NCBI GenBank assembly: GCA_947631745.1
Contig: CANRMM010000003.1
Location: 1 to 61,882, forward strand
Direction: 5' to 3'
Length of the DNA: 61,882 nucleotides
Origin: an uncultured Clostridia bacterium
GTDB lineage: Bacteria > Bacillota > Clostridia > TANB77 > CAG-508
This document shows, one piece after another, positions 50,663 through 55,789 of the stretch. The position numbers and the translations under genes were made by a program. The notes under the pieces are model-generated. The model had not been told where the DNA came from, made no database searches, and saw only the letters and a list, made by a program, of their open reading frames with translations. Every line of letters begins with the position of its first letter. Positions within the stretch are counted from its first letter, which is position 1.

Positions 50663-50959
50663 ATGATTAAGAAAAGAAATAATAAAATAATACATAAAAT
50701 TTTGACTATAAATATCATCATAATAATATTATTGATGAATTTCAATTTTGTATATGGAAATTTAGACGATAATGAAAAAATAGACATTGAAAAAATCAAA
50801 ACAGAAACAATTCCAACAGTAAAAAATACAAACAGTGAACCAAGTCTAAATTCGAGAATCGGTCTTATCTATGACAGAAGTTCAGGCAGAATACTATATG
50901 AAAAAAACGGTAATAAACAAACACCAATGGCTAGTACGACCAACATTATGACATCATAA
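50663..50959 (+). pseudogene. D-alanyl-D-alanine carboxypeptidase (S11, DacB/PBP5-like), N-terminal fragment split by an inserted element
   Basis: Signal peptide and the sequence ...YEKNGNKQTPMASTT. It breaks inside the SxxK motif (ASTT|K). Confidence 0.8.
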
Positions 50960-50996
50960 AAGATACTTCTACAAATACTTTAAATTAGAAAAAGCT

Positions 50997-51236
50997 TTAC
51001 ATCTGGCTTTGTAATACTTCTTGATATACATTTTCCAATTTATCTTTTGAAATCCCTAAATCTTTTAAAATTCCTATTGCCTCCTCTTTTGTTATTTTTT
51101 CAAAACATCTTTCGATATTTAAAACCTCTTTTATAATATTATGCTTTAAGATTTTTTTTTCATCTTTATTTTGGCTATCAGAATAATAATTAATTAATGT
51201 ATCATTAATTAATTTTAAATAATTTAAAGTTGGCAT
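50997..51236 (-). CDS. hypothetical protein (79 aa), element cargo
   Basis: The ATG immediately follows the upstream stop (TAAATG), which suggests translational coupling. Confidence 0.5.
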   Translation of the reverse strand: MPTLNYLKLINDTLINYYSDSQNKDEKKILKHNIIKEVLNIERCFEKITKEEAIGILKDLGISKDKLENVYQEVLQSQM

Positions 51237-52827
51237 TTATCTTTCTCCTCTTTTATTATTATTTGGAATTGAAACTTCTTTTCCTAGAGCTTTTATAGTA
51301 TATTGACTATTTTGATATTCATACCTTCCTGAATTAAACCTTTTAATTATATCTTCTCTTGAAAGTGTTTCTATCATCATACTTTCACTGTTTATAACAT
51401 GAAATTCTTTACCATTTTCATTATAAACAGCTATACTAAGTATATATCTAGAACCTTTTTCTCCATCTGGTACAATCTCTTTTAGCCAAGTATTTTTTGT
51501 ATTTGCACCTAAAAAACCTACTGAAGAAGAAATAGTTATACTTGGCAACGTCTCCATTCCAGATATTCCATGGTCACGCATAGTCTTAACTAATGCAGAA
51601 AGTTTACCTAAAAGATCATCTCCTTTTGAATTTTCTTCATTGTTAGCTTCTTCGGACCTAATAGTATCTAGCATTTTCATATAATTATCTATACTTTGTA
51701 TCTCTTGATATGCAAGAGGCGTAACCTTTTTTATTGCATTTTGATATTTTTTGTTAGGATCACAAATAGACGATATACCACAAATTGGTAATCCCATTCT
51801 TACTTTAAAAAATTCAGTACCATTTCCGTCCTATAGCATTTGTTGCTTCAGCTTTTACCGCAGCATCTTGACCTATTAACTCTACAAAAAAGTGACCTGA
51901 ACTGCCAACTACTTTAGCCTCTATATTGTCACCTAAATATTCATTTATAAATTTAGCATATACTCTTGAAAAATCATAACATATTAATTTATCATTTGGC
52001 TTAATCCCTTCTAAAAAAGTCTTATTGAAAGAACTATGATCAATTTTAGAAAAGATATGTTGCTCATCATACGAAAAAGTTTTGCATAATTTCATATATA
52101 TCCAAACAGCCTGTTCTTCTGGACTAAGATTTTGGGGCATATCATGAAAAACATAATCTCTAAGCCCATGACTAATTTGCCAATCAGGCTCATCATTTTT
52201 TCCTAATACTATACTATATTGTGCTTCTATTTTTTTTACTGACATTGCTAACTCAATATCATGAAAAGCCTGCTCATTTTCTTGAATAGAAAAGTTATAT
52301 TTAGCATTAGATAATATATTTTGGATTATATTATAATATTTATCTACTATTGATGCATTTCCAGCTGGCAAAGCTTTTTGAGAATTGATTCTAAAAAAAG
52401 ATAATATATTCTTCTTATGCTTAGCATTAATCTTCTCTTCGATAAATTCATTAAAAGTTTTAGTACCATTAAAAATTGACAAAATATCATTATAGTCAGA
52501 TTTACTAATTTTGCAATGCTTTTTAATAAATTTTTTAAAATCTTCTTCTCCTCTGCATTTTTTTAATATTTCTATTCTTTCTTTTTGAACGTCAGTATAT
52601 TGCTCTTCATCAAGACTTTTTAATTTTCCTATCAAGTCTGATAATTTAACTATTTCTAAAGTTGCATTTGGATTATTTATTTCGTGCATATATTTTATAT
52701 CTAAATCACCATCAGGATTTCTTAAAGCTTTAAGAACTTTGTTAAAGGTTCTATTATCGGTATTTATAAGATAATCTATGGTTTCATTAAGTTTATTTTT
52801 ACTTGTCTTATGTAAAATTATTCGCAT
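51237..52827 (-). CDS. element cargo with a transglutaminase-like Cys-protease-fold region; two ORFs (337 aa + 186 aa) joined if the in-frame CGG at 51828-51826 is read as +1
   Basis: The motif is LICYDFSRVYAKF...IEAKVVGSSGHFFVEL...QD (Cys-His-Asp-like). After gga CGG, the +1 frame reads GGNGTEFFKVR and then runs in frame into the ATG of the next ORF at 51797. Confidence 0.55.
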
Positions 52828-52968
52828 TTTTCCTCCAAATTAAAAAATATACATTTATTATATCATATAGCAAATTATACGGACAACATAAATTTGAAAA
52901 AAATCAAGTAATAAAACAAATAATAATAGAATACCATTTAATATTATGAATTAGTTGCAGGAGGAAAA

Positions 52969-53139: not shown

Positions 53140-53152
53140 AGGAGTATAGCAG

Positions 53153-54781
53153 ATGGATATATACACGATAAAAGATGAATTAAGCAAAGGAAAAACGATT
53201 TTCGATTTACCTTTAAGAGTTACATATTATGCAAGAGTTTCTAGTGAAAAAGTAGAACAATTAAATTCACTAGAAAATCAAATATATTATTATCCAAATT
53301 ACATTAAGAATGTTAAAAATTGGACATATATAGAAGGGTATGTTGATGAAGGAATAAGCGGTTCTAGTACATTAAAAAGAGACGGATTTTTAAAAATGGT
53401 TATGGATGGGAAGAATGGCGTATTTGATTTAATATTAACAAAAGAAATTTCTCGTTTTTCAAGAGATACTTTAGATAGTATAGGATATGCTAGAGAACTC
53501 TTAAAACATGGAGTAGGGATACTATTTGAAAATGATAATATAAATACTCTTTATACTGACTCTGAATTAAGACTAACAATAATGGCAAGTATTGCTCAAG
53601 ATGAGCTTAGAAAATTATCTGAGAGAGTTAGATTTGGTATGAAAAGATCAATAGAACAAGAAAGAGTATTAGGAAATAATGCAATATATGGATTTAATAA
53701 AAATGATGGTAAATTAGAAATCGATGAAAAAGAGGCACAATTTGTAAAAGAAGTATTTTTATTATATTCAACAGGAAAATATGGATTTAAAAAATTAGCA
53801 AAAGAGTTGTATAGGAGAGGATATACAAGTAGAAAAGGAACAATGTTAGACCAAGGAACATTAACTAGAATGATAAGAAACCCAAAATATAAAGGGTATT
53901 ATTGTACAAATACAGTAGCAAGATTAGACTATAAGAATACAAAACAGATAAGAATACCACAAGAAGATTGGAAAGTGTTTGAATGCAAAGATAAAATACC
54001 ACAAATAGTAAGTGAAGAAATATGGAATGAATGCAATAGAATATTAAAAGCAAGATCAGATAGCTTTAAGAATAAACAAGATGATAAAAATATTTTTCAA
54101 ACAAGATATACTTTTACTGGACTATTATATTGTAATGAGCATGAAAAATTAGTACCATTTCATAGAAGAACTGGAGATAAACTAAAAAATAGACCTACAT
54201 GGGCATGTTATAGATATATTAGATTTGGAGTAAAACAATGTGATTGCCCGATATTAATAGAATCAGAATTATATGAAATTATGAAAAATGTAATAAGCAC
54301 ATACATAAATAATCAAAATGAAATAACTAAAGATTTGCTAAAAAGATATGAAGAAATTGACATTAACAGTGATTATGATAAACAAATTAAAATGCTGAAT
54401 GATAAAATTGGGATTATAAAACAAAAAAAAGATAAACTTTTAGAATTAGTTATAAATGGATATATAAAAAATGATGAATTTTCAAAAAGAAATGATTTAT
54501 TAAATTGTGAAATGAATGAACACGAAGAAAATATAAAACTAATAAGAGAACAAAAAGATAGTGAAAAAGAAACTAAAGCAAATATAAGAAAATTAAATAC
54601 TGAAATAGAAAATGAATTAGACTTAGATAAAAATATAGATGAATATACTAAACTTATAATAGATAAGATAATTGTACATAAAGTAAATGGAAATCGAAAA
54701 CATGTTAAATTAGAAATTTTCTTTAAACTGGGAGAAAAAGAAGATATTGACTATAGTATGAGTCCAAATAAGACTCATTAA
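53153..54781 (+). CDS. large serine recombinase
   Basis: The N-terminal resolvase motif is YARVSSEKVEQLNSLENQ...SRFSRD. It is followed by a recombinase domain, a Cys-rich zinc-ribbon region and a coiled-coil tail. Confidence 0.9.
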   Translation: MDIYTIKDELSKGKTIFDLPLRVTYYARVSSEKVEQLNSLENQIYYYPNYIKNVKNWTYIEGYVDEGISGSSTLKRDGFLKMVMDGKNGVFDLILTKEISRFSRDTLDSIGYARELLKHGVGILFENDNINTLYTDSELRLTIMASIAQDELRKLSERVRFGMKRSIEQERVLGNNAIYGFNKNDGKLEIDEKEAQFVKEVFLLYSTGKYGFKKLAKELYRRGYTSRKGTMLDQGTLTRMIRNPKYKGYYCTNTVARLDYKNTKQIRIPQEDWKVFECKDKIPQIVSEEIWNECNRILKARSDSFKNKQDDKNIFQTRYTFTGLLYCNEHEKLVPFHRRTGDKLKNRPTWACYRYIRFGVKQCDCPILIESELYEIMKNVISTYINNQNEITKDLLKRYEEIDINSDYDKQIKMLNDKIGIIKQKKDKLLELVINGYIKNDEFSKRNDLLNCEMNEHEENIKLIREQKDSEKETKANIRKLNTEIENELDLDKNIDEYTKLIIDKIIVHKVNGNRKHVKLEIFFKLGEKEDIDYSMSPNKTH

Positions 54782-54796
54782 AAAAATGTCTTTTAA

Positions 54797-55789
54797 GTGG
54801 TCATCAGGAAAATAATGACTGCTATAGTTGTAATAGAAAAATCAAATTTAAATGACATAGTAACCATAGAAAGTAAAGCAGCAGGAACAGGAGGCTCAAG
54901 ACTAGGACTAAAGAAAAACGACAAAATAACAGTAAAAGACTTATTATATGGTCTAATGCTATGTTCGGGAAACGATGCAGCAGTAGCATTAGCAATTCAT
55001 ATAGGAGGAAGCGTAGAAGGTTTTGCAAATTTGATGAATCAAAAAGCACATGATTTAGGATTAGTTAACACTCATTTTGTGGTACCTCACGGACTAGACA
55101 ATAACGGACATTATACAACAGCATATGAATTAGCTAAAATAACAGACTATGCTCTAACAATAAAAGAAATAAAAAATATAGTAGAAACTAGAAATTACAA
55201 TGTAACGATTAATGGAAGTAGCAAAAACATTTCAAATACAAATGAATTATTAGGAAATTTAAGCGGCGTGTATGGGGTGAAAACAGGATTTACAAATGGA
55301 GCAGGTAGATGCCTAGTTACAGCATGTAAAAGAGGAGAATTAGATATTATTACAGTAATTTTAGGAGCAGATACAAAAAAAGATAGAACTTCAGATAGTA
55401 TACAACTAATTGAATATGCAAATAAAAATTACAAAATGATTAATATCAAAGAGATAATAAAAGAAAAGTTTAACAGTTGGCAAGAAATGAATAGAAAAAG
55501 AATTATTATCAATAAAGGAATAAAAAAAGAAATTGAACTAGAAATAGAAGAAATGCCATATACAACAATGGCAATAAAAAATACACAAGAAGATAATATT
55601 GAAATAGAAATAGATTCTTTATTTTACTTAGAAGCACCAGTAGCAGAAAAAACAACTATTGGGACCTTAAAAGTAAAAATAAACAATGAAACAATAAAAG
55701 TTTTGAATATTTATTGTAAAAATGAAATTGCCAAAAAACAAGTAAAGGATTATATAAAAGAAATCTTAGAAATATATGCTATTACATAA
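54797..55789 (+). pseudogene. D-alanyl-D-alanine carboxypeptidase, C-terminal fragment (genuine sequence starts ~54809)
   Basis: The sequence reads KIMTAIVVIE...LMLCSGNDAAVALA (SxN motif)...VKTGFTNGAGRC (KTG motif). Confidence 0.8.

Follow-up and report, generated by a model that had tools for sequence, protein, structure and literature searches.

A 3.9-kb serine-recombinase element in the catalytic Ser-x-x-Lys codon of a Clostridia D,D-carboxypeptidase gene: a candidate skin-type intervening element

A carboxypeptidase gene split at its catalytic lysine codon

In a 61,882-nucleotide (nt) stretch of DNA from an uncultured gut Clostridia bacterium (contig CANRMM010000003.1, positions 1 to 61,882; this whole stretch is called the window below), a Peptidase_S11 gene, here named dac, is interrupted at the Lys codon of its Ser-x-x-Lys (SxxK) motif by 3,867 bp of intervening DNA (Table 1). 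The two parts of dac occupy separate open reading frames (ORFs), and the N-terminal ORF reads on past the junction into the element before it stops. The N-terminal fragment matched positions 3-46 of the Peptidase_S11 profile (Pfam, E 3e-7), and the C-terminal fragment matched positions 40-239 (E 6e-53) and then PBP5_C, indicating that the two halves abut in the profile. When the host portions 50663-50943 and 54811-55789 were joined, an open frame of 419 amino acids (aa) containing ASTTKIMT, SGN and KTG was obtained, so that precise excision of the intervening DNA would restore an intact coding sequence. The joined protein, Dac, combines the features of a Peptidase_S11 D,D-carboxypeptidase (low-molecular-weight penicillin-binding protein, PBP), namely a hydrophobic N-terminus with a signal peptide, the SxxK (ASTTK), SxN (SGN) and KTG motifs and the PBP5_C domain; it matched PF00768 and PF07943 in Pfam and 35 entries in the PDB. 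The top PDB match was Bacillus subtilis DacB (3mfd, 4e-51), in a library that lacks DacA and DacF; because NCBIfam has no DacB, DacF or DacA models and the PDB holds DacB alone, orthology among these three cannot be read off the match. In B. subtilis, DacB is a mother-cell carboxypeptidase. As integrated, the element separates the catalytic Ser from the Lys of dac, and the locus can yield no active D,D-carboxypeptidase.

The dinucleotide AA is common to both junctions (50942-50943 and 54809-54810). The predicted attB junction reads ...GCTAGTACGACCAAAATAATGACTGC... and the predicted attP junction ...GTGGTCATCAGGAACATTATGACATC..., and the attP rebuilt from the two ends of the element is AAAATGTCTTTTAAGTGGTCATCAGG-AA-CATTATGACATCATAAAAGATACTTC. 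Around the AA, this attP showed dyad symmetry at 18 of 26 positions, against 7.3 +/- 2.4 at random, and none of 20,000 random positions reached 18. Across five elements the symmetry of attP was 17-21 of 26 positions (null, 7.4 +/- 2.4). The attB showed no dyad symmetry. Short att sites, a dyad-symmetric attP and a non-palindromic central dinucleotide that sets orientation are the features of serine-integrase sites, at which cleavage is established to occur at the central dinucleotide (PMC5595907).

An uninterrupted counterpart of the locus was found in a relative. Among thousands of homologues in the database, the closest uninterrupted one was P0002 (423 aa, 79% identity), encoded on contig L001 of a Clostridia metagenome-assembled genome (MAG). 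At the DNA level, L001 6966-8294 aligned to window 49649-50953 and L001 8283-9253 to window 54809-55779; the two alignments overlap by 12 nt at the junction, and the intact dac of L001 has the same two upstream neighbours as dac of the window. In L001, then, the site is empty, precisely where the junction was predicted. The interrupted locus was identical to that of the window in two independent short-read assemblies (L004 and L005).

These results bear out an original prediction made from the letters of the window, which described a D-Ala-D-Ala carboxypeptidase split exactly inside SxxK and an AA-core join that recreates ASTTKIMT; the ORFs, the Pfam matches and the open joined frame all agree with it. 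The att intervals that it proposed (attL 50939-50953, attR 54806-54820) lie within the mapped sites, its size estimate of about 3.9 kb compares with a measured 3,867 bp, and the check for empty sites in relatives that it recommended led to L001, which brackets the element. An intact second copy of the carboxypeptidase, which it named as evidence to the contrary, was sought as well, and no second Peptidase_S11 copy lies within the window. The serine recombinase that it placed at one end, preceded by a 56-aa ORF, was likewise found there.

Table 1. Positions of the split gene, the element and associated features in the window
Feature	Position	Strand	Remarks
Palindrome 5' of dac	50623-50660	+	Perfect, 13 bp; directly before the start codon; candidate dac regulatory site
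dac N-fragment ORF	50663-50959	+	98 aa, ending ...PMASTTNIMTS and stop (...KQTPMASTTNIMTS and stop)
Host portion of dac N-fragment	50663-50943	+	Signal peptide to Ser-Thr-Thr plus the two first bases of the Lys codon
attL	50917-50969	+	B arm, central AA 50942-50943, P' arm CATTATGACATCATAAAAGATAC
Intervening element	50944-54810		3,867 bp; bounds fixed up to the shared AA; bracketed by the L001 empty site
79-aa cargo ORF	50997-51236	-	Partner of the large cargo gene; equivalent of the 77-aa ORF in L118-L120
Large cargo gene	51237-52827	-	Frameshift near 51815-51835, giving a 337-aa ORF (51814-52827) and a 186-aa ORF (51237-51797)
Candidate sigmaE-like promoter, ATA-N17-CATAAATT	52867-52894	+	75-102 nt 5' of the 56-aa ORF; weak
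56-aa ORF	52969-53139	+	Candidate recombination directionality factor; ends 13 nt ahead of the recombinase gene
Large serine recombinase gene	53153-54781	+	542 aa; PF00239 1e-27, PF07508 1e-17, PF13408 1.2e-4
attR	54783-54836	+	P arm ATGTCTTTTAAGTGGTCATCAGG, central AA 54809-54810, B' arm AATAATGACTGC
dac C-fragment ORF	54797-55789	+	330 aa, starting VVIRKIMTAIVVIE... / VVIRKIMTAIVVIEK...
Host portion of dac C-fragment	54811-55789	+	Third base of the Lys codon to stop; SGN, KTG, PBP5_C

The recombination module and its relatives

The recombinase encoded by the element has the composition of a large serine recombinase, a resolvase catalytic domain with its nucleophilic Ser followed by C-terminal recombinase and zinc-ribbon domains, of which the zinc ribbon matched weakly (PF13408, 22.8 bits, slightly below the 25.3 cut-off). 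Ser30, the nucleophile (VTYYARVSS), was invariant among 22 relatives. Against PHROGs, residues 20-530 were covered by the integrase family phrog_95 (1.5e-100); the PDB match was 3g13 (4e-36), and NCBIfam gave a weak match to XisF (2.6e-19), far under its cut-off. The gene is located at the element's edge, with its stop at 54781 and the junction at 54809. The 56-aa ORF belongs to a conserved family (...QLxLEIELIINRKLY...) that is found 5' of the recombinase throughout the clade described below, including the elements in sigK, spoIVA and spoVD, and its product is a candidate directionality factor. A divergent intergenic region of 141 nt separates this ORF from the minus-strand cargo. The candidate sigmaE-like promoter in it (Table 1) is not conserved in the closest relatives, alignment of the regions 5' of the small ORF among these relatives revealed no conserved promoter, and a consensus scan found no sigma70-like site on the plus strand of 52828-52968. 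Over 50500-55900, the promoter and terminator consensus scan gave 48 sigma70-like sites against 39.7 expected and was uninformative.

Nine further elements (L014/L006, L010, L011, L028, L033, L036, L039, L043 and L075) are inserted at the identical AA of the SxxK Lys codon, and their recombinases are 45-88% identical to that of the window. All ten elements share one insertion nucleotide, and the host Dac proteins are just 37-76% identical to each other. Pairs of split dac genes showed 63-76% aa identity, and between hosts the recombinases were 74-88% identical as against 40-61% for the host gene. The SGN and KTG motifs are kept, and the dac fragments are otherwise intact, in the window, L011, L014 and L028. 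The cargo varies among the elements, comprising a protein of 594 aa or of 419 aa, a larger set of genes or, in one subclade, a RepA_N replication protein. The elements of L010 and L011 are reversed relative to those of the window and L014, and their core on the recombinase strand is TT instead of AA, as expected because serine-integrase chemistry predicts that the core sets polarity; these pairs offer a natural demonstration that a flip of the core dinucleotide flips the orientation of insertion. Since the elements are patchy among hosts and the recombinases resemble each other more closely than the host genes do, the dac family is horizontally mobile or was so until recently; scar-free loss, if frequent, could add to the patchiness. 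A scan of GTDB genomes with the recombinase returned a single close relative, from a rabbit-gut Clostridia MAG. Among viral contigs, relatives were found at 41-42% identity only, and a free phage form was not found.

In L014 (a contig shared with L006), dac carries a second, unrelated element of 7.8 kb (9635-17442), inserted at SGND|AAVA, in the Ser-x-Asn motif, which is the second of the catalytic motifs. This element has its own inverted repeats and encodes two serine recombinases (523 and 441 aa, about 25% identical to that of the window), a leucine-rich-repeat/dockerin protein and a cohesin protein. All three pieces of the doubly interrupted dac stay open. Another serine recombinase was noted in L028 (2522-4120), about 5 kb 5' of the split dac.

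From genome, viral and metagenome scans, 90 loci with recombinases 38-57% identical to that of the window were collected, and targets were assigned by matching the flanking DNA, up to 450 nt from the stop codon of the recombinase, to protein families. Fragments of sigK flanked the recombinase at 32 loci (24 N-terminal fragments in antisense and 8 C-terminal fragments in sense; NCBIfam SigK models matched best). At 18 loci the flank was a spoVD fragment, with TIGR02214 by far the top PBP model and matches starting at profile position 288, within S-T-F-K, or 423. A spoIVA fragment (TIGR02836), split near residues 390-404, was found at 14 loci. Five loci had a dac fragment, at the same site as in the window, one flank adjoined spoVS, 16 flanks were unassigned, and 4 loci held no flank. 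Examples, taken from within L015-L019 and L031-L115, are L083 and L053 for spoVD, L049 and L110 for spoIVA, and L058 and L108 for sigK. Recombinase P0176 (53% identity), the most abundant close relative with 422 index blocks, adjoins an rRNA operon (L031/L032/L037 10001-17405) and not dac or a sporulation gene.

In a neighbour-joining tree, the targets form clades, and the recombinase of the window falls in the dac clade beside spoVD-targeting enzymes; sister recombinases seated at sigK are about 40-43% identical to it. The spoVD-type element of L048 nests among the dac-type elements and is inserted at the Lys codon of the SxxK of that PBP, which suggests target switching between dac and spoVD through their shared S-T-x-K-I-x-T coding sequence. 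A CATA...T box lies 11-50 nt 5' of the small ORF at 15 of 35 non-redundant loci, including dac subclade B, against 1.4 expected. This box is the -10 element common to sigmaE and sigmaK promoters (PMC3789822).

Probable programmed excision and its alternatives

In skin elements of sigK, excision takes place in the mother cell and the element is kept in the forespore chromosome (PMC5025042, PMC4191935, PMC5595907). A published survey describes skin elements as having the recombinase always at the edge, usually beside the C-terminal fragment, with variable orientation, no common cargo and sizes from 2.6 to 48 kb (bioRxiv 10.1101/2022.02.25.481979). The window element fits this description point by point, with its recombinase at the edge, and its sister recombinases stand beside fragments of sigK, spoIVA and spoVD. 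The last three are mother-cell genes needed for spore making, and because of that need, elements seated in them are tolerable only with exit from the mother-cell chromosome and retention in the forespore. In the window element, the recombinase and the small ORF are intact while the cargo is frameshifted, a pattern that is expected if selection acts to keep the recombination module. Taken together, the association of the clade with sporulation genes, the intact module, the doubly split yet open dac of L014 and the DacB match led us to judge that the element is probably a miniature skin-type intervening element, excised during spore formation to rebuild dac. A skin-like character had already been proposed in the original prediction, and the seats of the clade at sigK, spoIVA and spoVD, the conserved 56-aa ORF, the sigmaE/K-type boxes and the DacB match support it by association.

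From the chemistry of large serine recombinases and the anatomy of the att sites, excision would begin with binding of recombinase dimers to attL and attR, and synapsis may be aided by the 56-aa partner acting as directionality factor. Both sites would then be cut at the central AA, rotated and religated, and the predicted products are an intact dac with its AAA Lys codon re-formed and a circle of 3,867 bp that bears the dyad-symmetric attP. Insertion occurs either way round, set by the orientation of the core dinucleotide. To judge by the targets of the relatives, excision would take place during sporulation and in the mother cell, which is terminally differentiated; the chromosome bound for the spore would retain the element, and the rebuilt DacB-like enzyme would presumably trim cortex peptidoglycan.

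Several observations weigh against excision during sporulation. An intact, reconstituted Dac, and with it an empty site in the same species, was not found for four hosts by exact look-up in the collection or by homology search. The candidate promoter that would serve the small ORF and recombinase of the window is unconvincing, and the sigmaE/K-like box is absent from the nearest relatives, L014, L010 and L011. Low-molecular-weight PBPs are usually dispensable, so that a plain knock-out could be tolerable. The context of dac is a conserved cluster resembling type IV secretion system (T4SS) and cell-wall genes and not dacB-spmAB, and the sporulation carboxypeptidases of Clostridioides difficile are under forespore sigma factors (PMC3789822). 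In L033, the C-terminal dac fragment is frameshifted, pointing to decay in one host at the least. The element is missing from the closest Dac relative (79%) and present in more distant hosts, and the L028, L033 and L036 elements (subclade B) carry the plasmid-type RepA_N gene; the patchy occurrence and the RepA_N subclade fit an ordinary mobile element.

Such an integrative element would use a conserved coding sequence as its attB, knock out a dispensable carboxypeptidase and be excised for transfer only, with no developmental link. The missing intact allele, the L033 frameshift, the empty nearest relative, the variable cargo and a recombinase more conserved than its host gene all agree with this explanation, and large serine recombinases often insert in conserved genes, for example comM (PMC10083194). 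It leaves unexplained, however, that the spore-essential sigK, spoIVA and spoVD are the seats of about three quarters of the sister recombinases, that several divergent hosts have kept their dac fragments open, even where two elements have inserted, and that many relatives have sigmaE/K-type boxes in front of the small ORF; moreover, the window element is devoid of replication, transfer and phage genes. We regard this explanation, the main rival, as unlikely, although it carries appreciable weight. A reversible switch in growing cells, of the kind termed active lysogeny, is improbable. In that case, stress-driven excision and reintegration, or an episome, would toggle the carboxypeptidase and with it cross-linking or beta-lactam tolerance. 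The recombinase and its candidate directionality factor could drive both directions, RepA_N could sustain an excised circle in subclade B, and the comK prophage of Listeria is a precedent; but the window element has no replicon, so dividing cells would lose its circle once excised, and the clade shows no link to vegetative regulation, its other targets being sporulation genes. It is also conceivable that element and dac are decaying together and that excision no longer occurs, given that the cargo gene is frameshifted and that comM in the window is likewise broken into three ORFs, a sign that this genome tolerates pseudogenes. This is very improbable, as the recombinase and the small ORF are intact, as are both att sites and the two dac fragments, and the same intactness is seen in several relatives.

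Sporulation genes known to be rebuilt through programmed excision are sigK, spsM, spoVFB, spoVR, gerE and yabG, and the kind of element described here is therefore known; a literature search found no report of a split spoVD, spoIVA or D,D-carboxypeptidase gene, and within the searchable literature dac is a new target, as are spoVD and spoIVA, the targets of sister elements. The skin elements of sigK (SpoIVCA in B. subtilis; skinCd of C. difficile, with CD1231 and the 72-aa CD1234) resemble the window element in the edge recombinase, the split coding sequence, the small accessory protein and the restoration of the frame by precise excision, which is predicted here from sequence. They differ in that the target in the window is a peptidoglycan D,D-carboxypeptidase and not a sigma factor, with insertion in the catalytic SxxK codon; unlike CD1234, the candidate directionality factor lies immediately 5' of the recombinase and looks co-transcribed with it. 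The gin element in gerE of Bacillus cereus (GirC and GirX) is likewise a non-phage element with a serine recombinase and a small directionality factor (a candidate in the window), a predicted AA crossover in a short shared sequence and an attP that is an imperfect inverted repeat, but gin has 31 genes, three recombinases and a length of 28.6 kb, against one recombinase and 3.9 kb here, and host class and target differ (PMC5595907). In SPbeta in spsM (SprA/SprB) and yin in yabG of C. botulinum, a sporulation gene of the mother cell is likewise split by a serine integrase and made whole again when the insert is excised; these inserts are prophages, or resemble prophages, and measure tens of kb, whereas the window element lacks phage genes. 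Cyanobacterial heterocyst elements, such as the fdxN element with XisF, are serine-recombinase elements in genes that are required only once a cell has terminally differentiated, and a single gene may host more than one of them, as does dac of L014. Phylum, cell type and targets differ, and the similarity is at the superfamily level only. The comM integrative elements and Listeria comK prophage A118 share site-specific insertion into a conserved coding sequence that is restored upon excision; there, excision serves the life cycle of the element or a vegetative switch, in contrast to the sporulation genes targeted by the window clade.

With the clade as a whole in view, we put forward, as a possibility slightly less likely than not, that gut Clostridia harbour a guild of mini skin-type elements that gate sigK, SpoIVA, SpoVD and a DacB-like carboxypeptidase, with insertions at the catalytic Ser-x-x-Lys codons of the last two, both of them cortex PBPs, and switching of targets between these two PBPs through S-T-x-K-I-x-T; cortex synthesis would then need one or two excisions in the mother cell. 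If excision during sporulation is correct, gene rebuilding would extend to the enzymes that build the spore cortex and would be common in uncultured gut spore-formers. Automated annotation would then miscount sporulation genes as pseudogenised, and sporulation capacity would be underestimated. The family would also represent a compact set of recombinase, partner protein and att sites, whose functions take up less than 2 kb and whose target is defined and highly conserved.

Cargo and gene neighbourhood

The small cargo operon foreseen on the strand opposite to the recombinase is present, with its larger gene frameshifted. The 337-aa and 186-aa ORFs are the halves of this one gene, since homologues are single proteins of 530-575 aa, and the frameshift is the same in the two independent assemblies L004 and L005. 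The family is tiny, with 13-25 database homologues that are always paired with a partner of 77-79 aa. The cargo ORFs had no match in Pfam, PHROGs, PADLOC or NCBIfam. An AlphaFold 2 model of the full-length homologue P0244 (mean predicted local distance difference test score 74) gave nothing at E < 0.001 in Foldseek; a weak resemblance to vasohibin-type Cys proteases was insufficient to name a function. In these four databases, no phage structural or lysis, conjugation or replication genes were detected in the window element, the integrase being the sole PHROG match. A prophage or an integrative conjugative element was accordingly rejected, as the element has neither phage nor conjugation genes.

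The palindrome 5' of dac (Table 1) has the Shine-Dalgarno sequence as its 3' arm and a TATAAT hexamer in the loop, and is followed by a U-run. The same palindrome precedes the intact dac of L001 and L116/117 and the split dac of L028 and L033, hosts whose Dac proteins are just 57-79% identical. RNAalifold gave -13.8 kcal/mol, with a conservation too high to prove RNA structure. The palindrome could be a terminator overlapping its own promoter, a hairpin that sequesters the Shine-Dalgarno sequence, or an operator. Directly 5' of dac and on the same strand lies the T4SS-like cluster (35223-50605), which encodes three paralogous VirB2/TrbC-like pilins, a VirB4-like ATPase, large proteins of unknown function and a hydrolase combining lysozyme and CHAP domains. 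The dac-proximal part of the cluster is conserved beside intact dac in L001 and L116/117, and the cluster was for this reason rejected as part of the element. In L028, a spore photoproduct lyase gene adjoins the split dac. The Spo0E-like gene that had been mentioned for the window was recovered at 34521-34727 (PF09388, E 2e-9) and is a weak hint that the host sporulates; the lyase gene of L028 points the same way, in a relative.

Elsewhere in the window, comM, a Mg-chelatase-like competence gene and frequent serine-integrase target, lies at 19376-20913; it is the gene frameshifted into three ORFs, which overlap or adjoin one another, and there is no element inside it. A type II clustered regularly interspaced short palindromic repeat (CRISPR)-Cas system occupies 363-7945, with Cas9 (1,076 aa), Cas1 and an array in which a 36-nt repeat occurs 21 times (4907-6255). 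When compared with the element and all fetched loci, the CRISPR spacers of the window gave short chance matches only. Small satellite CRISPR arrays are located at 6684-6849 and 7844-7945.

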